Source of the DNA: Hormiphora californensis
Lineage: Eukaryota > Animalia > Ctenophora
Direction: 5' to 3'
DNA length: 64,000 nt
NCBI GenBank assembly: GCA_020137815.1
Contig: CM035362.1
Location: forward strand, 682,001-746,000
A program made the translations under genes and the position numbers. This document shows, piece by piece, positions 3,117 to 62,272 of the stretch (the first letter of the stretch is position 1; each line of letters opens with the position of its first letter). The notes under the pieces are model-generated. The model saw only the letters and a program-made list of their open reading frames with translations. It made no database searches and was not told the origin of the DNA.

Positions 3117-34143
<31,027 letters not shown>

Positions 34144-36113: not shown

Positions 36114-37313
36114 TTAAGAATCAGATGGGACAGGGTGGGCACATAGATGCACTTTGAAACACTCCAGTGGTGCTAAAAACTCCTCTCTCTTCTGGTACTC
36201 AGTGAAAAAGAAAGCATTTACGCTATCCTGACTGAAATAATAAAACATACTCCGGATCCTCTGAGCCGTCTTCTCCCCAAAGAATGGCTTTATCGCTGTC
36301 AAAATATCTCGCTCTAGTGGAGAGTAGAGCTCCATCAGCTCCGCAAGGCCTGTGCACCTGCTGTCATCCCTTGCGACTGCAACGAAACACGAAATGAACT
36401 GGCACACACTACCGTACAGTTCAGTAAACAGGAGGGATTGGTCCTCTGTTAGCTCACCAGGGTTCAGGGTGAGAAAAGCATCAAATTTGTGGTTTAGAGT
36501 GAGGAAGTGAGAGCAGATCTTCCAAGCCTTCTCTTTATCTCCACTCTCGGTCACAATGAAATCATTCAGTGCGGTGATGATGGACAGATCTTGTTCACTC
36601 AGCTCGTTCTGTGTGAAGGGGTCAGCCAGGGCAGCCGGTTGGTTGAACTTCTTAGCCATCTTATCAAATTGTACAACCCTCGCTTTATCAGACTCAGCAC
36701 GGAGCTTTGTTGATTTCTTTAGAGTCCCCATAAATTCCAGATTGAGAGCGAGGACCCTCCTAGAAACTTCCAGCCTCCTCATTAGGTACTGGACTAGTTC
36801 CTCACCTCTCCGTTCTCTTAGTTTGGAAAGAAAGTTGTTGTCAGGATCCAGCATAATGGTGATCACTTGTTCAAGTCGGGCGTTGGTTTTGGCACTGTAA
36901 GCCCCTCCAAAGTAATCCCGGAGATGTTTCTTGAGCAACTCAAGGGGCTCCCCCAGAGCAAGTGACGCCTGTTCAGACCCCAAATCCGCCTCCATAACGG
37001 TGGCAATTGCCCCGAATACCTCCTCCTCGGACCTCATAATGGCCTCCAACTGCTCTATTTCCTGTTCACTCACTGCTCTGAGATACACCTTGAAGCCCAC
37101 CTTCAGCATCAACCTCACCAGATTATCAACCGTCTCCTTGGCAACATCAGCACCCACCTCCGTCTCCAGGAAACCTTGGATCTTGTCCAGGAACTCGATA
37201 CTGTCCGAGTGGATGATCTCGTTTGGGTGGTCGGTAGATCTGGCGTGTTTGATCCATTTCTGGGTGGCCTTCACTGCAACAGCAGCACTGATCGCCTTGA
37301 TGTTGTTGGGCAT
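36114..37313 (-). CDS. Intronless 399-aa protein with two tandem TNFAIP8/TIPE-like helical domains
   Basis: Long clean ORF. Repeat 1 (AVAVKATQKWIK...SIEFLDKIQGFLETEVGADVAKETVDNLVRLMLKVG...YSAKTNARLEQVITIMLDPDNNFLSKL) parallels the TIPE consensus (LAVQAQKKIL...SSEVLDELY...AEKIIKNLIK...LTAKSHGRVNNVFDHFSD.EFL). Repeat 2 (TESGDKEKAWKICSHFLTL...FGEKTAQRIRSMFYYFS) shows the same pattern. Family assigned by eye. Confidence 0.65.
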   Translation of the reverse strand: MPNNIKAISAAVAVKATQKWIKHARSTDHPNEIIHSDSIEFLDKIQGFLETEVGADVAKETVDNLVRLMLKVGFKVYLRAVSEQEIEQLEAIMRSEEEVFGAIATVMEADLGSEQASLALGEPLELLKKHLRDYFGGAYSAKTNARLEQVITIMLDPDNNFLSKLRERRGEELVQYLMRRLEVSRRVLALNLEFMGTLKKSTKLRAESDKARVVQFDKMAKKFNQPAALADPFTQNELSEQDLSIITALNDFIVTESGDKEKAWKICSHFLTLNHKFDAFLTLNPGELTEDQSLLFTELYGSVCQFISCFVAVARDDSRCTGLAELMELYSPLERDILTAIKPFFGEKTAQRIRSMFYYFSQDSVNAFFFTEYQKREEFLAPLECFKVHLCAHPVPSDS

Positions 37314-38608
37314 GGTAGCTGGAGGAGGAGTTAGGGGTTTAGATTAGATTTTGAACTGTTTGTTTTAATAATATAAAATAATCGGAGCATGATAAATCAA
37401 CAAGTGCATGAAAAAAACAATGTATCAGTTTTGCTGGAAAGTGAAAAACATGCCACACATGATGGTTTGAGCTTGGACCAAAAATAGTAATGTGGATTGT
37501 TATGACTGTGGCTAAAATTACACCGCGCCACGACCCCCGTGTTAAAGAAAACAATGGCTGGGAGCCAACGATAACATTTTCAGCTCATGTCAACTGTTGA
37601 GTGGTAGGGGAATAGAAAGCAAATAATGAATTAATGAATGAAATTTATTATGGGAAATGTATTTATTCGACCAGACCGATCTGAATTCAACCATTGTCTA
37701 TTGATTACCGTTTCAGATTCAATCCAGCATCTCAGCTCCAATAGTATATTATGGTTATGTGGGATGTGGGTGGATTCCACCGTGGAAGAGCCAGGCCATT
37801 TTGGCGTAGATTTCTAATAATGAACCCCTCGGGTCTCGATATGATACACATTTTCGGGTTGCCCTTCTCTCATTCCCTCAGCTGTCCACCCCTTGTACAA
37901 CACCACAACAAGCATGCGATGTTCGAGGATTTCCCGCCACGTCACTAATTCTCGTGGGAATTTCCCAGATCAGAAGATTTCCCAAAATGACAGTTACAAT
38001 GCTGTTATCTGATCTCTCTCTCTCTCTCTGCCTCTCTCTATAATCGCACCATGACATATTGGTCGTTATTTCTTATCTGTTTCTTGCCAGTTTTTTCTTG
38101 TGACCTGCACTTTGCTTTCACTTCCCTTTCTCACGATCAGAACTCTCAAATAAACTTTCTCCCTCTCTCTTGTAGTGCAAGTTTCACTATCTGTATATCT
38201 CCCACTCTCTCTGTCTAATTACTGCTCCCTCCCCCCTTGGCTCTCTGTTTCTCTTGTTCATTCTCCCCTTCTGCTCAGTCTTCATGCTTATCAGTTAAAC
38301 TAAACGAGCTTCCTATTTTGTTCACTGTCAGACTGCCACGTTGTTGCTGCTTGTAGTATGCTAGTTGAGATGACAGCTGTTATACTGAGCTGTTCAGAAA
38401 CCAGTACTCAATAGCTTCCATTCTTACCCAAACTGGTGGTGCTTTGCCAGACAGGTGATCGTTGCATATTTCCCAGCTCCCAAATAATGACGTGTTGCAA
38501 CAAGTCAGCTTGAAGTTGAACAAAAAAAAAGTGTTTTGGTGTCACTGCAGACTCCTAACACCCCTCCCAACTGTGTTTTAGCCGGTGCTATATCACCACA
38601 TTAATATC

Positions 38609-41053
38609 ATGGGTGTAACAGACATGTGTGTCCATGCCTTCATTGATGTGCCCACGCAACAGTGGATCTGCAGTGATAACACCTGGTCTCAGGTCCGCTG
38701 TCAGGTACCTACATGATTATTGATTATTAAATATTAACTGCTGATCTGAATTCTCTCAGATTGACTGATTGAGAATCTGATTGAGAATCCTCCATTTATT
38801 CTGATTTCTGAGACTCAAATTGAGTGGAAGGTCGGGTGCCAACTAGACAGTCTATACTGCTTAACAAGCTGTGATCGAGAGAATCAGTTATTTGATTGAG
38901 AGAAATCGGGATATTTTTGACAGGTTCAATCGATCAATCTGTCTCTCCGATCAGAGCAAAACTGTCAAAAATATCTTGACCGTATTCATTTATTTATCAG
39001 CCTGATTTCTTGCAACTATAGTAACCCTCCTCCTATTTCCCTGCAGCACCTTCCTATAAAAGAAGAGATCACGGCAGTGTTGGAAGGAGCGGAGCTCTGG
39101 ACTCAACTGAAGCAGTTCCAAAATGAGATGGTAGTCGGCCCTCAGGGAAGGTAACTGTTGTTAGTCATTAATTATTAATCATCTCTGTCCCAAAAAGTCC
39201 CATTTCTAGTATTTCTACTAGTACCACCTGCTGAACCGCAGTCTGGCAGATTCCCTTCCCCATTAATGGGGAAGGGAATCTGCCATTTCCTGATTCCTAA
39301 TCAATTCCCTTCCCGCAGGCGAATGTTTCCTAATTTCAATGTGCGTCTCTCGGGACTATCTCCGACCCGGTACTATCACGTGTTCATTGAGGCAAGGAGC
39401 ATCAACGAGAACAAGTTCTCCTTTGATTTCAACAGTAACTGCTGGGGAGTCACTGGACCTGCTGAGCCTGAGAGTATGAAAAGGATCTATTATCACCCTG
39501 AAACTCCTCTACAAGGTTAGTACAGCTGCAGTAGGACTTGGCTCCATTGCAACCTATTCTCGCTCCGCGAAGAATAGGCTCCCGGCCTGTGGACAGCAAG
39601 AACTCACGTGCGCGCGATGTAAAGCACGTTTTCAGCAGTGGGACTATCAAATCGCGCGCGAGATACTGTTTTAGCAGGCATTTTTAGCCGACATAGCACT
39701 ACCAAAACCCCAATTACCGCCTCAATTGGCACTTTGATGTATCGGCGGGTATTTTCCCATACTCACAAGGCCATGACGATTCACCCAGTACCCGCAGATT
39801 GTCCCAGGACCGAGTAGGAGCTTGCAGCCAGGTCTTTAAAGAATTGCTCATGTTTAGCGTCAATTTTGACCCACTATTCCTCAAATGCTGATATTCGCGG
39901 GTATTTTCCGTAAAACTAGAGACAATTATCTGCCAGGAGCAACAAACGAGATGCAAATCGGTTCAGTAGTTCCTTGCAGCCAGGTCTTTGAAAAAGTTTG
40001 CTCTAAAATCAATAACGCGCCGGAGGCCTAGATGTGAGATCGATCTCGGTCGCTGCGCGACCTCGATCTCACTCAGGCATCAATGTGGCCAACAGTAGGA
40101 CCCCAGTACCAATTTAGGGATGCAGTTTAGGTTTTAGATTTATTGAAGATCGTTGTTTTGAAGCTAGTAAAGTTCAAACTATGATATTATCTCCCTATAA
40201 TACCAATGTACTCCTCATCATCTCATTCTCCCACTTAGGATCTGGCTGGATGAGGAAGCCGGTTTCTTTCAAAACTCCCAAGTTTACTACTGGACAGAGG
40301 GATGGTAACATGGTAAGTTTAACATGTTTCAACACATTCTTCTCTCTTGATCTAACATGTTTCAACACATTCTTCTCCTTATATCTAACATGTTTTATTA
40401 CACAGTCTTCTCCCTAGATCTAACATGTTTCAAACATTCTTCTCCCTCGATCTAACTTGTTTCAAACATTCTTCTCCCTAGATCTAACATGTTTCAACAC
40501 ATTTTAACACATTTTAACACATCCCTCATGCAGATTGAGATAAGGAAAGGTCAGAAGTACGTGCTGGTACTACATGTTGTGGAACTATCTGATAACCGTC
40601 ACCTTCCCAACCGCTGCCAGGAGATTATCTTTGAGGAAACGGAGTTTGTAACCGTTAGCTCTCATCAAAATCAGGTGAGAACTGTCACTGTCAGACCTTC
40701 GTCCTTCAAGATCTCTCAGAGAAGAGATCAATGATCATAGATCAGGCCTGATGTATCTCTTCTCTGATCAGGGAGCCTCATTTTCTCTGATCAGGGAGAC
40801 TCATTTTATGTTTCCTAAGTAAGACACCACCAATTAACTATAGGAAGGTGTCAGACCTGTAACTTCCCGATTAGATGAGATAGAAAGCAAATTCTGATTG
40901 CGTTGTAATCGTCTCAAAAATCTTATTCAGAGAAGCTCTGCATGTTCGTCATGCTCTGCGTAACCCACTACTGATAATATGTTTCCCCAGGTTGTTGCGG
41001 CTACTAAACTAAACCGGAACGGACGATTAACCAGTATGGGACAATGTCATTAG
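38609..41053 (+). CDS. Divergent T-box transcription factor
   Basis: Exons 38609-38704 (tentative), 39047-39150 (LEGAELWTQLKQFQNEMVVGPQGR), 39319-39515 (RMFPNFNVRLSGLSPTRYY...RIYYHPETPLQG), 40239-40312 (SGWMRKPVSFKTPKFTT), 40534-40674 (GQKYVLVLHVVE...FEETEFVTVSSHQNQ), 40991-41053 (VVAATKLNRNGRLTSMGQCH*). Typical T-box motifs and intron positions (GR|RMFP, QN-x|). Confidence 0.9.
40318..40520 (+). repeat. ~32-33 bp minisatellite filling a T-box intron
   Basis: About 6 copies of TCTAACATGTTTCAACACATTCTTCTCCCTAGA-like units. Confidence 0.9.
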
Positions 41054-49324: not shown

Positions 49325-49890
49325 GGGAAGGAATTATAGGTCTCTACTAGGACTACAACCTGGCGGTTGGTGAACGGAATTCGGCGGAAAAAGCGTTTTA
49401 ACAGATGACCCTCTGATGGTAGCAGGTATAGACTTGTAGTTAAAGTAACGATCTTGCATCATGACAAGGAAAGATGAGGATTTTATTGGATTCTCTGAAA
49501 ATGAAAATCTGATTTTTGGGGAGTTGAAAGGAGTTAAATTCCTTAAAAATATAAATTGTATAAATTGTACAAAAATGGAATCTATATGTGTAGAAAGTCA
49601 GTTAATAAGGTCTGCTTGGATTAAAACTAATTCATTCTAAAATTCCCATGTCATAACTACAGATAACTACAGATAAGTAGATATTGTCGCGACATGTCGT
49701 AATAATACGTAGGAGTCAGATATGTACCCTGCTAGTAATATAGTTTGTAGGTAAAACTGTATTCTTATTAAAGCGACCATACGCTGATCATTTCAAGTTT
49801 CTAAATGAGTCAAATTGAATGCTAGTTATAAGAACTAATTATTGAATTAGATCTAATTATAATTATTATCGCTAATTATTGTCCCGCACT

Positions 49891-51123
49891 TCATTTTCTC
49901 CTCCGACCACTGCGGTGGGATGCACGTGCACACACAACACATCGGCCCATAACAGGTTCAGAAGACAGGGCTGCCTCGGTTGAGGAGGATGGGGTTGATC
50001 CCTTTACGATGGAGCAGTTTCCAGCCCGACCTGCAGGGAGCAATGTTAGTTAGAGATAATGATTAATTAGGGTAAACTAATCGCAATAAAGCAATGCAGG
50101 ATGTATCATCATATTCTTACGTACCATCACATGCGACGAAAGAAGGTGAAGATTGGGTTTCCCGACATGTCGCTGGGGATGTCATGGGAATGCCGGGCCG
50201 TTGTCCTTCCTCATTTTCATCATTGTACCAGTCTAGTAGGTTGCTAAACCTGAACAAGATAGTGTCAGACAGACAGACAGATAATCTCAGGGTGGGGAAC
50301 GTCTGTAGCTACCATCCCTGATCCATCTCAACCCCTTTCGGGGCCGGGGCCTCGACGAAGAAGACAGACAGACAGATGACCTACGTAAAGGAGGGTTACA
50401 ACATAACAAACAGAAAGACAGACATACTCCCTCGACGACAGACAGACAGACAACCTACCCGGTCCACATGACATTGAATCCAGGGGAGCAAGAAGGAGCC
50501 TCATCACCCCAACTATGCTTAGTTTCCAGTCTGCTGGGTCCCATACACACGTTACACCGACTAACATACCGCTGGATCTCAGACAGGTCCGAGATGGGGG
50601 TATCCGGGGCATCACTGAGAAAGGAGAAAGGAGAAAACTAGCATATCTTTGTAGTGAAAATTGATTCATTTAAAAAACTTTCAAGTTTGGTTTATACAGA
50701 CGCTAAATGGGTTCAAAGTACTGGACCACATGTGACCCAATCTAAAGGGTTAACAAGTTTCAAAATTACTTAGACTCGGTTGCCAGCCAGATTGTCTTAT
50801 CTGACACAAAGTCCCTGCTACACTCATCGTTCCTGTAATGTGATGAAATTTAGTCAATTGGAATGGGGAGATCAAAATTAGGTTTTTTGATAAAATCATA
50901 GGAAAATTTCTTGAGTGACATTAAATTTAATCCTAATTTAACAGTTCACACCCGTGCCATGACACTCTAATATCAATCCTAATCTCTAATATCAATCATG
51001 ATCACTTACTCATTACAAGTTAGAATTGGTGTTGGTTGGAAGTATTCCAAACAACTTCCCATCTTAGCAGGGTCCTGGACCTGGGACTTAGAATCGGTGT
51101 TCGCCACCGCGAAGAAGGAATAC
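49891..51123 (-). CDS. Collagen IV NC1-domain exons (single 'constant' set)
   Basis: Exons 51123-51010 (GYSFFAVANTDSKSQVQDPAKMGSCLEYFQPTPILTCN), 50832-50770 (ENDECSRDFVSDKTIWLATES), 50614-50459 (EIQRYVSRCNVCMGPSRLETKHSWGDEAPSCSPGFNVMWTG), 50249-50125 (FSNLL...MTSPATCRETQSSPSFVACD), 50030-49891 (GRAGNCS...MGRCVVCARASHRSGRRRK*). GT-AG and in frame. With the upstream CPxxW this gives the 12-Cys two-repeat NC1 pattern. Confidence 0.93.
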
Positions 51124-51396
51124 CTGGGAGAAACACGTGATATCAAACAAGATATTTTCGTCAAGTTGTTTTACTTTTGTCAAGTCGAGTATTGTTTCGT
51201 CGCAATTGATCTTGTATGTTTACTTGCTGTGATTCAGTTATGAGCCTGTCATCATTAGCTTAAAATGAAACGTATCATCATAATGTCTGTCTGTGGCTTG
51301 AAGGGTTAAATATATGAACGGAGCGGAGTAAACTTATAACATGACGCACTATTCTGTTAGAGCTGGAATGAACCTTAATATCATGATCACACTCAC

Positions 51397-54300
51397 CCCT
51401 TCCAAAGAGAAGTCCACCCGGTTGGACAGCTCACCTCTCCCTCCCCATGAAGTGTTACAAGATGCCTGTCACACGAACACCCCTTCTTACTCCCAGTTGC
51501 CATGCCTGATTTACACGCCTTGGAACAACCACCAGCCTCTCCCTCAGGCCCTTTAACCCCTGTCCCTCCACTCTCACCCTGAGATCCTTCATCTCCTGTT
51601 GTACCTGTGTCTCCCCTCTTTCCTCTGGATCCCCTGGTTCCAGGAACCCCAGGCTGGCCTTGAGTTCCAGGAATCCCAAGCTCACCCCATACCCCAGGAA
51701 TACCCGCCAGACCTTGGAGTCCAGGAATACCAGAAACACCCTCACTACCAGACTTGCCTGGCCTACCAGGGAGCCCTATAGCACCATCACGACCTGTAGA
51801 ACCGAGCCTGCCTTCCCGGCCAGGTACACCCTGATCTCCTACACCTCCATCAGGGACAACTTTTGAAGTGCTAATAAAGTTAGCCATGGATTTCGACCAA
51901 ACCTCGTTACCAGGTTTCAGTCCGCTCAGTGAAGAGTAGAAATCACTAATTACCCCTGCCTGACCTGGCTTACCTTGACGTCCGGCCTCTCCTTCATCTC
52001 CTGTTAACCCCTGATCTCCCTCCAAGCCACTGGCTCCTTCCCTTCCTCTATCACCAGGGTAACCGATAGTCCCAACTATCCCCTCCATTCCAATCTGTCC
52101 TTTCATCCCAACATCACCATCATCACCAGGTAGTCCCTGTGCCCCGATAGGACCAGGGTATCCTTGTCTTCCAGGAATTCCCATCAGCCCCCCAATCCCC
52201 TCCACTCCTTGATCTCCCTGGGATCCTCGGACACCCTTCAGACCTTGCCGACCCCGTGGGCCTCGTCTTGAAGCGCCTGGGTGTCCTTTACTGCCCGTCC
52301 TGCCAGTAGGTCCGATGGCCCCCTTGGCTCCTTGAGCCCCCTCAGCACCATCACTTCCCTTCTTTCCAACAATACCTAAATCTCCATCATACCCTATTTC
52401 TCCTTGCTCTCCCTTCTGGCCTCTGGCACCTTTCTTACCAATACCTCCTTTTCGCCCCGTATCCCCAGGATACCCGACCTCACCTCGAGACCCTCGCTTC
52501 CCTCGGGGTCCACGATCATCAAAGAGAACTGCCAGTTCGTGATCGTCACCGGGTTGGCCTTTTTTACCATCTGGTCCTGGGTAGCCTGGATCACCTCGGA
52601 CTCCCTTGACTCCTCCCGGGCCATCCTTACCCACTCCTCCTCTAGCCCCAGCACCACCTCGCCGTCCTTTGGTCCCCTCACATCCCTCAATACCTTTAGC
52701 GCCCTGAGGTCCGGGTATACCGGCCATGCCCCTATCTCCCCTCCCTCCTTGACGTCCTTTGTACCCGATCTCACCCTTGATACCAGGGTCCTCCAGGTAT
52801 CCCTGGGAATCCATCGTCTCCAGGGAAACCAAGGTACCCAAGAATTCCCTCATCTCCAACATCACCATCAAGACCATCCAAGTCCTTGTTGACCCATCTC
52901 TTCCTGGGAGTCCAGGAGCACCAGGCTCTCCAGGCCTGCCCCTGATCTGGTGTTAGGAGTGTCACCTTCGGGTCCTTTCTTACCTCGAGCCCCTGGAACA
53001 CCCTTCCGTCCAGTATCTCCAACTACGACCTTTGTCTCCCGTTACTCCCTTGTCCACCAAAGTCACCAAGTGGTCCATCGGGTCCCTGGTCTCCTGGCTC
53101 CCCTGTCCTACCCTGGAAACCAGAATTACCAGAATCACCTGGTAAACCATCAAAACCGGGCACTCCAACCTCTCCTTTCATACCCTCAAATCCAATATCA
53201 CCTTTCCGTCCTACACCACCTTCATTTCCAACTTCTCCAGAGGTTCCTCTGGATCCAGTTTCACCCTTGGGACCTTTGCCTCCTTGGTTACCAAGACCTC
53301 CCTTGGACACCCAGGGATCCCTTCTTGCCCATTCGACCTTCGTAGCCAGGTAACCCGTTTGATCCATCCGACCCCATCCAACCGCGGTATCCCTGCTCAC
53401 CTTGGGCTCCCTCCGCCCCAACTGGACCCTGCATCACCTTGTGGACCTGGTTGCCCCTTTCCACCCCTCATTCCTTTTCCACCCGGCCCTCCGACAACAC
53501 CCTTGATGCCCTTACTACCTTTAGTTCCAGTGGACCCCCTGACACTTGCACCAGGGTCACCCCTCTCTCCCTTCTTTCCCGGTTCACCCTTTACAAATAA
53601 GGATCGGTCGAAATCCTCTGGATTCCCTGGTAACCCTGGGAGACCGCGGACACCTTGTTCACCTGTTGGTCCACGGCGTCCAAGATACCCGTTTCTGCCC
53701 ATGTCACCTCTGTCTCCAGTCCGTCCGGGCGTGCCAGCTCCACCATTCTTTCCAGAAATACCTTGAGCACCGGGAAGTCCAAACTCACCGACGACACCCC
53801 TCCTGCCCTTGGACCCTTGTTCTCCCTTGGTTCCTTGTGGACCATCCGGACCTTGGAACCCTTTGTTTCCATGGTAACCATACAACCCGGGATGCCCATT
53901 CAACCCAGGGAGACCCTCTAGTCCGTCCAATCCGGGGAACCCAGTAGCGCCTCTCCTTCCAGTCCTGCCAACATCACCTACCTCTCCGGTTACACCCTTT
54001 CTACCCTTATCACCGGGAAGACCATCAATAGCGGGCATACCGGGTACCCCCGTGACACCAAAATCACCAGGATTACCAGCCCGACCCACGGGTCCTGTCT
54101 CACCAGGTATGCCAGGGACTCCCTTGACACCGTGTTTCCCGGGGTAACCAGGGTAACCATTGATACCAGGTAACCCAGCAACGTTACTGCTCCCTTGACG
54201 ACCCTTTGGTCCGGCATCTCCATCCCTTCCCTTGGGTCCAGGACCACCTAGTCCTCCAACAGCACCATCAACACCGGGTATTCCCTCAATTCCAGGAATT

Positions 54301-56510
54301 CCTGCCTCACCCTCAAAACCCTTGACACCGGGTGCACCCATCTGGCCATCGGGACCTCGCTCTCCCTTGGGGCCAACATCTCCCTTCTCTCCCCCATCAC
54401 CTTCAGCACCTTCCTTTCCCACAGTTCCGTTCCTTCCCGGACGGCCGTTAACACCCATCCTGCCAGGTAGTCCAGCCCGACCAGGAACTCCATTATCACC
54501 GACAACTCCGAAATATCCCTCCTCACCTGGCTCTCCATTCTCTCCGAGGCGCCCGGGGAATCCACGTATTCCCTTCTGTCCTTGCTCTCCAACCTCACCC
54601 TTATCTCCAATGAGACCGACCTTACCAGGTTGCCCAATGAGCCCATACGCTCCATGCCTTCCCGAACTGCCCGTAGCACCAGTTGGTCCAGGTTCGCCCT
54701 TATATCCGGGATCACCATCGTAACCTGGGACACCAAGTGTTCCTGTCGCTCCTTTTTCTCCGGCTCTACCTTTCGCACCTCGAACTCCCTTGATACCTCT
54801 AGGTCCACGAGGTCCATCGGGTCCCAACTGTCCTTTGTACCCTTCGATACCTTTATACCCAACTAGGCCAATCTGTCCTTTCTGGGCAGGCAGCGGGTTA
54901 CCTTTTACACCTTTTACACCCTCGGGACCGGTGAGACCTTTGAAGCCTTTCTCACCCATCGGACCTTCATCCCCGAATGTAGTGTTTCCTTGGTTACCCC
55001 TCTCTCCCCTCACACCCCTCCGTCCTTTGAACCCTTTCACGCCTTCTTCACCCCGGGGTCCCTGCCTACCTCCCCATCCAATATCGCCCATCCTTCCTGG
55101 TTGACCCTGTTCCCCGTAAGGACCTTGGTCTCCCTTATCACCCACAGTTCCCTTTCCTCCTCCCTCTCCATCCATCCCGGGTATACCAGGGATGGCAGGA
55201 TCACCCTTCACACCCTTCCTCCCCTGCCAACCCTCACTTCCATTAACTCCCTTCAGTCCGACAACACCTGTAGATCCCTTGTCCCCGGGGGTTCCTTGGA
55301 AATCTGGGATCCACTCCACACACTCTCCCTTTTGGCCAGTTAGTCCTGAGAGTCCAGGTAGTCCGCTGTAACCAGGTCTACCGGGAATCCCATGAGGTCC
55401 TTGCCTGCCCTTGTCACCTGTCTCTCCAACCTCAGCGGGAACTCCGACAGGTCCAAACTTGCCCTTAGGTCCAGCTGGTCCAAGGGTGCCCTTTTGGCCC
55501 TTTTTACCCTCCCTACCTTGCTCTCCTTGGGCTCCTTGGTTTGGATTCTGTGGTCCAGTTTCACCCTTTTGTCCCACTGCACCCTCTTGACCAGGGAATC
55601 CGATCCATCCAAAACTACCTCGTTCTCCCTGTTGACCCTTTACTCCTTTCCCTCCTTTCTCTCCCTTCACCATCTCCCCCGTCACTCCCTTCTCTCCTTT
55701 GAATCCTATCTCTCCATCAACTCCATCTGTTCCATTGAGGCCATCAGTTCCGTCGACAGCGGGAACACCCGGTTCCCCAATAACACCTTTCAGTCCCTGC
55801 AGACCCCGGTCACCTTTATTACCCTTTTCTCCATCGGGTGCATCCTCACCCTGAGGACCCATTTCTCCCTTAGCTCCGGAGTCCCCTGTTTGGCCTTGCT
55901 CACCCGAGAATCCTTTGAAACCGGGCAAACCAATTGGTCCAATTTCTCCTTTTTGACCCTTCAGAACCAATCCAACGGGTCCTGTGTCACCCTTGAGTCC
56001 TTCAGTTCCGTTCAATCCGGCTGCTCCTGGGAAACCCTTCAACCCATCAGCTCCCTTTTCTCCTCGTGCCCCATTCTTTCCATCAGTTCCATTGGCACCA
56101 TTAATACCATCAAACCCAGGTGTACCAGTGAGTCCATCAGAACCGGGCTGACCGGCGATTCCCATAGAACCAGTCCTTCCTTTGTACCCCTTGTCACCCT
56201 GAGGTCCAATATCACCCGGCAGCCCGATGGGTCCTGGTGTGCCTCTATACCCATTCCTTCCGTTCCTCCCAGGGAGTCCAACCTCCCCCTTAGGTCCATC
56301 CTCCCCAACAGGTCCTATCTCCCCCGGCCGGCCTGCTTGACCCCTGACGAATCTGACGGGAGCAGAGCAACAAGTCTCAACCGAGTCATCGGTAGGAGTC
56401 TCCGAGATGAGATCCGGAAGTAGGTTGCTACTGAAATCCTCCTGGGATAGGAGGGTGGAGGGAAGGGAAGAAAGGGAAAAAAGAAGGTACAACACAGTTG
56501 ATGTCATCAT
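51397..56510 (-). CDS. Collagen IV chain 'B': one ~5.1 kb exon (signal peptide, CCS-containing 7S-like region, interrupted Gly-X-Y, Cys-rich segment, NC1 start)
   Basis: ORFs 53397-56510, 53023-53421 and 51393-52877, with Gly-X-Y continuing in shifted frames across 53430-52770. Signal peptide MMTSTVLYLLFSLSSLPSTLLS. Ends CSKACKSG...KGCSCDRHLVTLHGEGEVSCPTGWTSLWK-GG|GTGAGT (phase 2), joining 51123. Confidence 0.9.
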
Positions 56511-56548
56511 GCTTTATACAGTGTCTCTCTTTTTTACATGACAAAAAC

Positions 56549-56789
56549 CTGAAAATGAGAAGGGGACTAGCATTTCCTTTTTTGGGTAAAAAAGTAGCGA
56601 AATAACAACTGTAGTTGCATGATCGACCTTACCTTTGAGACTTCCCGCCTAACTCAGAGAGATGGTGATTGGTGAATTGTGAAATGAAGTGACAAAATGA
56701 AATGATTACGTAATCATTGTACAATGAGTGAGATTGTCGGTCAGTCAGAATGTTACAACAAGCTTCACGTGTAATAACACGTGTAATAA
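56549..56789 (-). promoter_or_regulatory. Compact putative promoter/5'UTR region of collagen chain B
   Basis: UTR intron with donor AAAG|GTAAGG (56632) and acceptor CTCATTTTCAG (56549). Perfect palindromes AATGATTACGTAATCATT (56701-18) and TCATTGTACAATGA (56714-27). Tandem CACGTGTAATAA x2 (56766-89). Confidence 0.45.
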
Positions 56790-56806
56790 TATCATTAGTA
56801 TCTCAC

Positions 56807-59800
56807 CCTTTCCAGAGAGATGTCCACCTTTCAGGACACTGGGCCGCTTCATCCGAGTAACTGTGAACTGTAATGAGATGTCTATCACAGTGACACCCCT
56901 TCGTTTCTTTAACTGTGCAGTCCTTCCTACATGTCCCTTCCTCCCCCTTCTCACCCTCTCGACCTTGGATTCCGGAATCACCATAGTCACCATCATCACC
57001 ATCCTCACCGTCATCACCATAGCTACCCTTTCGACCTCTAATGCCTGGCCGTGCTGGGGTCCCTTGGACACCCCTGTACCCCTGGTCACCACGGGGACCA
57101 TATGATCCTGGCGCACCGGGAACACCTGGAACTCCATTGGACTTACTAACCCCATGACGACCCTTGGAACCTGGCCGACCAGGTATCCCATCATCTCCCT
57201 GAGCACCAGGCATACCAACCAGGCCCCTCTCCCCGAAATCTCCATCCTCAGCAGTCAGCAGCTCCATTCCCACCCTAACAATAGAGGTCTTGACGACATC
57301 GGCCACGTAGCTAGCATCAGGTGTTGAGTAGTCAAGGCCTGTCTGTGCACTGTAAACAGTCCGGATATCAAATTGTTTTCCCTGAGGACCACGGAGTCCC
57401 TGGGATCCTCTACCACCTCTATCTCCTTTGGAGCCTGGGAATCCAATGGTTCCTGGATCTCCCTTATCTCCAGGGATACCACGACCTCCTCTCCGACCCC
57501 TCGGTCCAACAGGCCCTTCACCACCAATACCACCTCGCACACCCTTCTCTCCTCTGCCACCGTTGGGCCCAGGGTTGCCAGGGTAACCAATTTCACCTTT
57601 ACCACCGGACCCTCCTCTAACTCCCATGGAGCCCTTGGAGCCGCGTCGTCCACGGAGACCTGGCATGCCCCGCCGACCTCGCAGATTCTTACCAGGGTGC
57701 CCCTTTTGTCCAGTATGTCCCTTGGTACCCATGCCTCCTTTAGCCCCTTGAGGTCCCCGTGCTCCAATCTCACCGGGAACACCGACAGGTCCATAATCAC
57801 CGTCATAACCAATGTACCCTGCCTCTCCTTTCTTACCCGGTAGACCCCTATCACCCCTCGGTCCCCTGTCTCCATCATCACCGGGCCAGCCGATCTTTCC
57901 TGGTCTTCCCCGCACACCGGGGTCTCCCTTTCCATCTGCCCACACGACATTATCAAATCCTGGAGCCATGTCACCGGAGAAGCCCTTGCGTCCTTTTTCA
58001 CCACGGTACCCCTTATCACCAAGGATACCTTTCTTTCCTCCCGGCCCTGTTGGTCCCCGGTTACCACGGTTACCTTGTTTACCCCAGTATCCTTCCCGTC
58101 CCTCGCACCCTTGCATCCCTTCTACTCCTTGGGGTCCGGGCCTGCCCCAATCTCCCCTGTCACCCCGGGTTCCATTCGATCCTTTGTGTCCTACTTCTCC
58201 CTTTATACCCCCTAGTCCAGGGTAACCAGGGTAACCAGGAGTCCCTGTTTCACCTTTAGTACCAGAGAATCCAATGTCTCCCCTCTCTCCACGTGCTCCA
58301 GGGAAACCTTTACGACCTGGTAACCCGGGGTAACCAGGTGATCCTAACTCACCGGTGATACCTGGAACTCCAACCACCCTTTCACCTCGCTGTCCTTTGT
58401 TTCCTATCGGTCCATAGCCTCCCTGTCTACCCCTGATCCCTCTCTCACCACGCTCTCCTCGTTTCCCCATTTGCCCGTAGGTACCTCGTTTACCCTTTCT
58501 ACCAGGTACACCAGGCTCTCCCTTGGAAAGGGGTGTTCCCTTCCTTCCCTTGGGTCCAATACCACCTTTGTACCCCACCACACCAACTTCCCCTTTGTCA
58601 CCTCGGCCTCCCTGGGCACCCTGTCGACCAGTCGGACCAGGATCACCTAGAACACCCTTGTGTCCATCACCACCGGACACACCCTTAGTTCCCTTGACAC
58701 CCGCTGCCCCATCTCGTCCCCTTTGGCCCGGTCTACCCCACTCTCCCCGGAATCCGGTCTGTCCCTGTTCACCGGGGTAAGCATCTCGTCCTAGTTGTCC
58801 TGGTGGTCCGGCATCCCCAGCTGGGCCCATCTTACCAGGTGGACCCCTGGAACCGTCTCTACCGGGATTACCAGGGATCCCAGGCTGTCCCTTTCGGCCC
58901 CTTCTACCGATGAATCCCTGCCAACCAGGGAATCCCTGATTACCGTCCTCCCCATGGATTTGCCGTCCCTGCTCTCCCCTCCCTCCCTTCAATCCCTGCT
59001 CTCCAGCGGGTCCTCTCTGCCCAACACCTCCACCTCCACCAATGTAACCCTTCTCCCCAGACTGACCCCTTCTACCATCCAGACCTTTCTCTCCAATGTG
59101 ACCAGTGATTCCTTGTTCGCCAGGGGCTCCGTTCTCACCATGGAAGCCAGCCTGACCCGGGATCCCATGACGACCAACCTCTCCCTTCAACCCTTTTGGT
59201 CCCCGCTCTCCATCCACACCAATCATACCCTTTCTACCGGTCCGTCCCAGAACTCCCGGTTTCCCATGATTTCCATTCTCACCGGGTGGTCCTGGTAGTC
59301 CGTTGAGTCCAGTTATCCCTGGGACACCAATGTCGCCAGTTTCACCCACTTCTCCGTCGGCTCCAGGGGGTCCTCTCTCACCGGTCTCAGCCTGGTCGGC
59401 CCTTGGATCCAACACGTCCATCACTGGCACCTGAGACCTTGATTTCCCATTACTCCTTTAACTCCCTCTCCTCCTGGGGTTCCATGGGGCACCCTGCTCT
59501 CCTGTAGCCCCTTTAGGCCCGGTGTACCCGTCCCAACCATTAACTCCTGGAACACCATTCCGACCATTAGCACCATCATCACCATGCATCACCTCTATCA
59601 CCTTTACTCCCCTCCAAACCATCCAACCCGGGCTCCCCGCTCCTCCCTCTCAGACCCTTGGCACCCTTGTGTCCCTTAGCACCGATATCACCTTTCCGAC
59701 CCTCAGGACCAAGTTCTCCAGGCCACCCTTGCATACCATGCCAACCATCATCTCCTCTGGATCCCTTCTCACCTTTGTCTCCCCGGACACCTGCTGTACC

Positions 59801-62035
59801 GGTGGGACCATCAGCACCATCAGTTCCATCTCGGCCAGTCCTGCCGGTGTATCCTGGGATACCAGGAATCCCTGCCACTCCATGAATACCATTTACACCA
59901 AACAATCCCTTGGAACCTGGTTCACCAGGTTCTCCATCAGGTGCATTTTCCCCGTAGTTTCCAAACTCACCCTGCTCTCCCTGATCTCCGACCAGACCTT
60001 TATCACCCTGGAGTCCAGGGTTTCCTGGAGTACCATGGATACCAGGCATGCCATCAAGTCCTACAAATCCGGGTTCCCCAGGGGCACCCACCTGACCCTT
60101 ATATCCTGGCTCTCCCCGCTCTCCCCTGGCTCCACGACGTTTAGACTTTCCAGGTTCTCCATCGCGGCCGGGTTTTCCCTTGTCACCGAAATAGCCCTTC
60201 CGTCCAACGGCACCCTTGTCACCTTCGGTACCTTTCTCTCCGACAATTCCTCGCTTCCCGGCAAGCCCGAACTCGCCCCAATCTCCAATAACGGCCTGAC
60301 CCTTAGCACCTTTTGGACCCTTTGGACCTGGTTCTCCCTTGACTCCCCGTCGACCGGGCCAGCCTGGTTCTCCAATGGTTGTGTTTCCTTGGGCTCCCTG
60401 TGGTCCCATTGGGCCTTCCACTCCCTTCTGGCCCTTGGGTCCAACAATGCCTTTGATTCCAATGATACCTTCCTCACCTTCATCACCGGGCTTTCCAGAA
60501 ATTCCAGGAACACCTTCAGGTCCCATTTCACCCTTCTCTCCCTGAGGTCCATCATCGCCATCCATACCGGGTATTCCAGGCATGCCTGATTCACCCCGGT
60601 CCCCATCTGCTCCCTTCTCAGATCTCGGACTGTGGTCACCTTGACGACCCTTTCGGCCCTTGACACCCGTTGAGCCCTTCTCGCCTGGGTTATTGTAGTC
60701 AATCGTTGTCAGATCTAGGGTCCATTCAGTGACACCCTTTTGTCCAATAATCCCATCTACACCGTGACGTCCATCAAGACCGGGCACGCCAGGTCGACCT
60801 TCGAGGCCCATTGGTCCCTTATCTCCCTTTTCACCTGTAGATCCTGTTGATCCATTAAAACCCATTTCTCCCTTGATTCCCCTTCGTCCAGGGAAGCCCT
60901 TTTCACCCTCTCTTCCAGTTATTCCTGGCTGCCCAACTGAGCCCTGTGGACCTCTGAGTCCCACTGCACCGGTCGATCCATTCCGGCCTTTGAGCCCTTC
61001 CCAGCCCTTATCTCCCTTATTTCCATCGAAACCGGGAATTCCAACAACTCCCTTCACTCCCTTGTCACCGATTGTAACCGTTCCCTTCCATCCTTTAGCT
61101 CCTTTTTGTCCCTGTTGCCCCTTTTCACCATCATACCCATCAATACCAGGAATTCCATCAAGAGCTTGTCTTCCTTTCTCTCCCAACTCACCCTTTTGTC
61201 CAAGTCGACCAAGTCGACCCGTTTCTCCCTTGTCCCCTGTGATCCCAGTCGGACCGTACCCACCATGGGCACCGTCTCTAGCTATGTTACCCTTCTCTCC
61301 CTTGCCACCCCGAACTCCCTTCGCGCCGAGACTTCCAAAGTTGGGAGCGGGTTCACCAGGTACTCCTTTCAGAACTATCCCAACAGGACCTGTCTGACCT
61401 TTCTCACCAATCTCACCCTTCGGACCTTCCACTCCCTCCTCCCCTTTATCTCCTCTAACTCCCTTGTCTCCAACTGCCCCGGGGATTCCATTAGTACCAT
61501 TAGCCCCATTGATACCATCCCACCCATTCACACCAGGCAAACCAGAGATACCGTCAATACCAGGCTCCCCAGTTAATCCAGGAACACCCTTGTACCCTTT
61601 ATCTCCAAATATACCAGGAACACCAGGCATGCCATCGGATCCAGGCTCACCGTAGACCCCCGGCCAGCCCCTTCGTCCCCTCATCCCCTTTTCTCCCATT
61701 GGTCCTAGTTCCCCTGGTGGTCCTCTCTCTCCCGGCATGCCAGTGTCACCCCGGACACTTTTCTGGGGGACGGAACAGCAGTCCTTCAGTTCGTCAGTAT
61801 CAGACAGGGTCGAGGATCTCAAGAATGCTCGGTTGAATGGAGTTTGATCACGGTTAGAGTTGGAGATGGTGGATTCTCGGTGGTTGTCGATTTTATCCAG
61901 CGAATTTCCCCTGTTCCTGCCTCTGTTCCTGCCCCTGTTTCGCCGTCGTGCCTCAGCCTCAGCGTCTGCGTCGGGTGATCCCAAACAGCCGGGACCAAGA
62001 AGAATCAATAAAAGGAAAATTGAAGATCTAGCCAT
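56807..62035 (-). CDS. Collagen IV chain 'A': one ~5.2 kb exon paralogous to chain B, with no NC1 exons of its own
   Basis: ATG 62035 with signal peptide MARSSIFLLLILLGPGCLG, then DCCSVPQKSVRG. ORFs 59579-62071 and 56803-59430 are linked by frame-shifted Gly-X-Y at 59590-59385. Ends CRKDCTVKETKGCHCDRHLITVHSYSDEAAQCPERWTSLWK-GG|GTGAGA (phase 2). Confidence 0.9.
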
Positions 62036-62272
62036 GATGCTGGTAAGGACTCGGTAGCTTCGTAGTTTCAAGTTCGCATGATCCTCGAGGCTATACTATA
62101 TTGATTTTCAAAGTTTGGGTCAGTCAACAATTTAGAAATATATTGAGAGAGAGGGGGGAATAATTGGGGGTTCAAAACCGAAATAAATTCCCCAAGACAT
62201 CACAGAGAGAAATATATTCATTGCATGCATTATTGTCATGTTTTATAACATTGTCTTGTCGTTGTCAGGCTG

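Follow-up and report, generated by a model that had tools for sequence, protein, structure and literature searches.

A collagen IV chain is normally the product of one gene with one helix and one NC1 domain, and the NC1 domain decides which chains assemble. A locus of the ctenophore Hormiphora californensis raises the question of whether two helices can be served by a single NC1. The window, by which we mean the whole 64-kb stretch of DNA that was analyzed (eukaryotic, 43.7% G+C, with 0 N), contains two giant tandem exons, A and B, that encode collagen helices, followed by a set of five NC1 exons, and the initial annotation had proposed that both are spliced to this one set. We consider it probable that the locus is one group II collagen IV gene in which ancient duplicate 5-kb helix exons are alternatively spliced onto a single five-exon NC1 set.

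Table 1. Features of the collagen IV locus and of its surroundings, in window positions
Feature	Positions	Strand	Details
Candidate 3' splice sites ahead of A's ATG	62036..62095	-	AG ending 62091 or 62040
Variable exon A	56807..62035	-	ATG 62035; phase-2 donor after 56807; signal-like start, Cys-Cys NC3/7S-like start, helix, 43-aa NC2, cysteine loop, first 25 NC1 residues
Frameshifts in A	59587-59389	-	four, all +1, within 200 nt
A-B gap	56511..56806	-	296 nt, no N; A's donor, acceptor ending 56549, 38-nt leader of B
Variable exon B	51397..56510	-	ATG 56510; phase-2 donor after 51397; parts as in A: signal-like start, helix, 33-aa NC2, cysteine loop, 25-residue NC1 start
Frameshifts in B	53423-52788	-	8-9, nearly all +1, within 640 nt
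Constant NC1 exon 1	51123-51010	-	114 nt; Pfam C4 match
Constant NC1 exon 2	50832-50770	-	63 nt
Constant NC1 exon 3	50614-50459	-	156 nt; first C4 repeat ends, second begins
Constant NC1 exon 4	50249-50125	-	125 nt
Constant NC1 exon 5	50030-49891	-	137 nt coding + TGA; AATAAA at 49487
T-box gene (Pfam)	39179-39517	+
TNFAIP8-like gene (Pfam)	36117-37343	-
Open frame	20438-21943	+	502 codons; low-complexity Pfam matches only
Dzip1/Iguana-like gene (Pfam)	6168-6506	+

The coordinates, the donors of A and B and the acceptor at 51123 all proved to be as first annotated (Table 1). Both exons begin with a hydrophobic N-terminus and carry Cys-Cys ahead of the helix (judged by eye), both encode the long interrupted Gly-X-Y domain expected of collagen IV (493 triplets in A and 498 in B, each with 20 interruptions, frameshifts being read as X), both have four Cys in the cysteine loop, and both end in W-K-G at a common phase-2 donor, GG/GTGAG. 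From the acceptor at 51123 the frame runs on into Y-S-F-F; the introns around the five NC1 exons are all GT-AG, and those of the gene, the A-B gap aside, measure 94-273 nt. Splicing from either donor is predicted to give a two-repeat NC1 with 12 Cys, the collagen IV form, in agreement with Pfam and with alignment to full NC1s. Pfam C4 matches fall on three of the six NC1 pieces (A's end, model positions 2-24; exon 1, 26-61; exon 3, 95-109), and there was no match to B's end, exon 4, or exon 5 when these were searched singly. Neither blastn nor tblastx with the five exons detected a second NC1 set in the 64 kb, nor was there one among the matches listed for tblastn with five NC1 proteins. The 1965 nt upstream of A contain no end of a third variable exon, and no high-identity repeats were found at the locus. 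A alone has an arginine-rich R-N-R-G repeat after its signal-like start (window 61960-61905), possibly a processing or binding site, which B is without.

The initial annotation had measured this locus against canonical COL4 genes, but the proper baseline is ctenophore group II collagen IV, for which the available text of PMC5395295 already gives both tandem order and a 4.8-kb helix exon. That source describes group II by an NC2 insert of about 38-44 residues, a cysteine loop proposed as a ctenophore cross-link, and a tandem or single arrangement. In the window, NC2 has 43 aa in A and 33 aa in B, the latter under the published range, and the four-Cys loop of each chain sits in the variable exon, with the remainder of NC1 constant. 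The giant exon of Mnemiopsis leidyi ML18175a is given as 4762 bp, ending in W-V-G at a phase-2 donor (PMC5395295, supplementary file 1), with NC1 exons of 111, 63, 156, 143, and 179 bp; in the published table this is the sole giant-exon gene, the exons of the others being at most 1122 bp. The window resembles it in the giant exon, the W-x-G end, the phase-2 donor, and the five NC1 exons (here 114/63/156/125/140). It differs in that ML18175a has been described as a single, ordinary gene that carries its own NC1, and the available parts of PMC5395295 describe neither a second giant exon nor a shared NC1. By sequence we assign the locus as the ML18175a orthologue, a ctenophore group II collagen IV; the giant helix exon is already known, and a second one on a common NC1 was not found in print.

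Among 1.84 billion proteins, the best of 25 matches to exon 3 was P0001, which, like P0043, carries the residues published at the exon ends of ML18175a. A metagenome scan returned six loci from 74 stretches, of which L001 is transcript-like and of the window's type and L002-L006 represent further paralogs of ctenophore type. A tree of 18 NC1 rows places the window's NC1, on a long branch (3.26), in a clade of seven rows supported at 100/100 with P0043, P0042, P0044, L001, P0029, and P0030; single chains of solved NC1 structures are matched by the NC1 of the relative P0042 at E 1e-28 to 1e-33. The variable ends of the relatives could not be sorted into A and B types; the NC2 of L001 has A's length but scores against both A and B (36 and 5 of 2000 shuffles). 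No protein pair in the two nearest clusters (4 + 4 members) joins an identical NC1 to different helices. Both results count against a shared NC1. Many of the relatives' proteins start just past the junction, for which a contig break at the branch was considered, and start-codon choice explains these starts equally well. Atlas matches were to collagen IV clusters only, and four open reading frames of the window were absent from the protein collection searched. A word-based protein search with exon 3 gave two candidates, neither of which scored, and one with P0042 among longer proteins gave 389, none at E 1e-20. A scan of a viral collection (38 stretches) yielded a single locus, whose terminase match is attributable to chance, and AlphaFold on alignment A1 produced a failed model (pLDDT 28.5).

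Two observations concern collagen-related sequences elsewhere. P0002, P0012, and P0016 have no Gly-X-Y helix, and Pfam detects two strong C4 repeats in each (E 1e-49 to 1e-61); the cluster of P0002 lies on metagenome contigs of 23-38 kb. The N-termini of P0002 and P0012 may resemble proteins of CPR bacteria, which would place NC1-like domains in prokaryotes. In L006 (2580-2963), a spliced collagen IV NC1 is followed, after a non-coding stretch of 1.5 kb, by further intron-separated Gly-X-Y exons on the same strand, which could be a tandem collagen, precursor RNA, or a chimeric contig.

How old the two exons are, and whether A is still maintained, can be judged from their divergence. A and B share 46.7% identity across 1657 aligned residues (24.7% without the shared glycines), which rules out uncollapsed haplotypes, and 141 of 412 silent third positions are identical (34% versus about 29% expected from composition). 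Because silent sites are near saturation, the duplication is ancient, and A has nevertheless retained its 493 triplets, its NC2, and its loop. Against a profile of NC1 starts from 10 related ctenophore-type heads, A scores 44.3 bits and B 27.5, values reached by none of 500 shuffles; A retains 9 and B 8 of the 11 invariant columns, and the H-S of the HSQ motif is kept in A and lost in B. The final W-T-S-L-W-K, a string present in none of the 10 related heads, is identical in A and B, with three silent and no replacement changes. On the basis of NC1 structure, we assume that the NC1 end of the variable exon and its C-P cysteine pack and bond with parts from the constant exons; the homologous stretch was found in solved NC1.

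A's end thus behaves like part of a complete NC1, which argues against two readings in which A has none. In the first, A is a working chain that stops at the TGA of a former donor, and B is a separate, operon-like downstream gene. An in-frame TGA does lie past W-K-G, but it belongs to the donor itself, is identical in B, and has a counterpart in the TAA that the ML18175a donor gives. A 25-residue NC1 fragment would, moreover, have no core to pack on, yet A's is better kept than B's, and none of eight types of poly(A) hexamer occurs in the 258 nt between A's donor and B's acceptor (weak evidence, since AATAAA follows the stop in only three of six transcripts). We regard this reading as improbable.

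We give the same low standing to the second, in which A is a young pseudogene that recently lost its own NC1 exons through a real deletion. The four frameshifts in A are what speaks for it. The initial annotation described two giant single exons, a layout that stands, although neither frame is unbroken: one-base frameshifts occur in both. Their clustering is improbable under neutral decay (chance of about 2e-4 in A and 5e-7 in B), and the Gly-X-Y pattern picks up after every one of them along a path without a stop codon. They are likely local consensus errors of the long-read type, i.e., sequencing errors. B, the exon adjoining the NC1 set, carries more of them than A, so they do not mark A as defunct; those of A are all +1 inside 200 nt, elsewhere A has no stops and no decay of its glycines, and a collagen neighbor in Mnemiopsis (see below) hints that the arrangement is old.

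The assembly, then, has local errors, as the frameshift clusters show, and these are present in both exons. A further account builds on this, namely, that A's own NC1 exons were dropped from the assembly between A's donor and B, leaving A and B as ordinary tandem group II genes, and complete tandem genes are indeed usual for group II in the available text of PMC5395295. The preserved NC1 start of A fits such a gap and a shared NC1 alike and cannot tell them apart. The sequence between A's donor and B's ATG was said at the outset to contain no NC1 coding sequence, and this was upheld: none of its 15 AG sites opens an NC1. The junction is free of N, of high-identity repeats, and of error clusters, and the gap is similar to the introns of this gene in length (296 versus 273 nt) and G+C (36% versus 37%), with donor and acceptor intact. 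The published Mnemiopsis set also contains just one giant-exon gene with this NC1 plan, with an unlisted collagen next in number. A lost set of NC1 exons is thus unlikely, though it is the alternative to which we give the most weight.

The unlisted Mnemiopsis collagen is ML18176a. It and ML18175a have consecutive numbers, are both labeled COL4A6, and co-vary in regeneration in the available text of PMC10876535; ML18176a is missing from the 11 full-length genes and four supplements of PMC5395295 and does not appear in the searched supplements of PMC10876535, PMC13749725, PMC6278862, and PMC12549020. Known from its gene number and label alone, ML18176a has the look of an NC1-less model of exon A, which we treat as a hint.

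A's NC1 exons might also lie outside the window, with B and its NC1 nested as a gene inside A's first intron. The available text of PMC8527503 describes parallel nested genes as common in the genome of a ctenophore. Here, however, such an intron would have to be more than 56 kb long and to contain the T-box, TNFAIP8-like, and Dzip1-like genes, whereas the gene's other introns are 94-273 nt, and we consider nesting the most improbable of the alternatives. The same three neighbors can be used for synteny with Mnemiopsis.

The reading that we favor, a single NC1 set used by both exons, draws on selection on A's NC1 start, on the single NC1 set, and on the Mnemiopsis collagen neighbor, but no junction read was obtained. 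Sequencing run X1 matched the locus in seven short pieces of <95% identity in each of two comparisons, and an 849-nt contig has 34 nt in common with NC1 exon 3 but breaks off 172 nt beyond them; as the expected junction lies about 45 nt further, the contig speaks neither for nor against it. The acceptor of B also counts against sharing, in that it is the nearest cis partner of A's donor, and a route by which it is avoided would be needed. It is strong and pyrimidine-rich, lies 258 nt past A's donor and 38 nt ahead of B's ATG, and has an ATGCTAG-pyrimidine pattern in common with the acceptor of NC1 intron 2 (four occurrences on the minus strand). A cis splice from A to this acceptor would meet a stop after 39 codons, and its product would probably be degraded; a weak AG just ahead of B's ATG, which would join A and B in frame, is probably unused. 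No intron-intron RNA pairing of the docking type emerged, 25 of 40 shuffles doing as well.

Several motifs recur in these introns. The A-B gap has a tandem 12-nt repeat that includes two CACGTG boxes (window 56789-56766), and another CACGTG lies just ahead of the NC1 acceptor (51134-51139); these are 3 of the window's 15 and possibly promoter or splicing elements. The motif TGATATTA occurs shortly past the donor in three introns, those that follow A, B, and NC1 exon 1 (56806-56780, 51396-51370, and 51009-50985).

If both exons use the one NC1 set, the mRNA for chain B would arise by removal of the 273-nt intron, as in ML18175a, and that for chain A by skipping of B within a 5683-nt intron. The two chains would then differ in their helices and cysteine loops and have an identical NC1 core. 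We take the chain-selecting core of NC1 to lie in the constant exons, and A and B would therefore be interchangeable in trimers that differ in helix and cross-linking loop.

A more speculative point is the origin of the 5' ends, each of which probably comes from spliced-leader trans-splicing at an acceptor ahead of the chain's ATG. Chain B would result when a leader is joined to B's acceptor, and chain A when A's donor bypasses the 5-kb B exon. The acceptor ahead of B points to leader trans-splicing and not only to promoter choice, and the sites ahead of A's ATG (Table 1) are possibly a spliced-leader acceptor as well. In one ctenophore, 56% of the long reads carried a trans-spliced leader, according to the available text of PMC8527503, and the group II paralog transcript L003, the only one of six transcript-like loci that reaches the start codon, has a leader ending in AATTTGAG, 24 nt ahead of its ATG. 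No leader-like motif was found in the window. Leader trans-splicing at B versus skipping of B would be the likely switch between the chains. The fullest version of this scheme, in which an ancient, phylum-wide gene swaps a whole 1700-residue helix through competition between leader splicing and B skipping, with free A/B trimers, a tunable basement-membrane network, and ML18176a as exon A annotated as an orphan, is tentative, and we think it may well not hold in full.

No report of collagen IV helices on common NC1 exons was found in full-text searches of the openly available literature. The string "splic" does not occur in the main text of PMC5395295 or of PMC12141075, and the available parts of PMC12549020 and of bioRxiv 10.64898/2026.02.02.702917 have nothing on collagen IV helices with a common NC1. 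A curated ctenophore annotation may already hold the A and B isoforms without comment.

Were the shared NC1 real, two helices diverged to saturation on one NC1 would separate recognition from mechanics and show, in a natural setting, whether chain choice and register depend on NC1 alone. The number of collagen IV chains in ctenophores would need revision, since tallies based on NC1 would miss one, and gene models described as lacking an NC1 might be misread exons. A structural matrix protein from an animal lineage that branched early would also join the proteins built on the variable/constant exon design.

The known isoforms of collagen IV differ in short stretches only, e.g., through the alternative promoters of COL4A6 (PMC2120565, available text). 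COL4A1 and COL4A2 resemble the window in having a signal peptide (signal-like here), a cysteine-bearing N-terminus, an interrupted Gly-X-Y domain, and a two-C4 NC1 with 12 cysteines, but they are arranged head-to-head, have dozens of exons, and carry an NC1 in each gene. Variable first exons on constant exons are the design of the clustered protocadherins, UGT1A, and the chelicerate sDscam genes. As in these systems, treated in the abstracts of PMC3325998, PMC4835542, and PMC9258826, the window has the makeup of a variable-first-exon cluster, i.e., tandem paralogous large 5' exons with equivalent donors and one constant set, and to this extent the analogy to protocadherins and UGT1A drawn in the initial annotation is apt. 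It breaks down at the strong 3' splice site that precedes B, 38 nt ahead of its ATG, and the window differs further in that two variable exons are seen, the protein is secreted and structural, and the constant part is the assembly domain.
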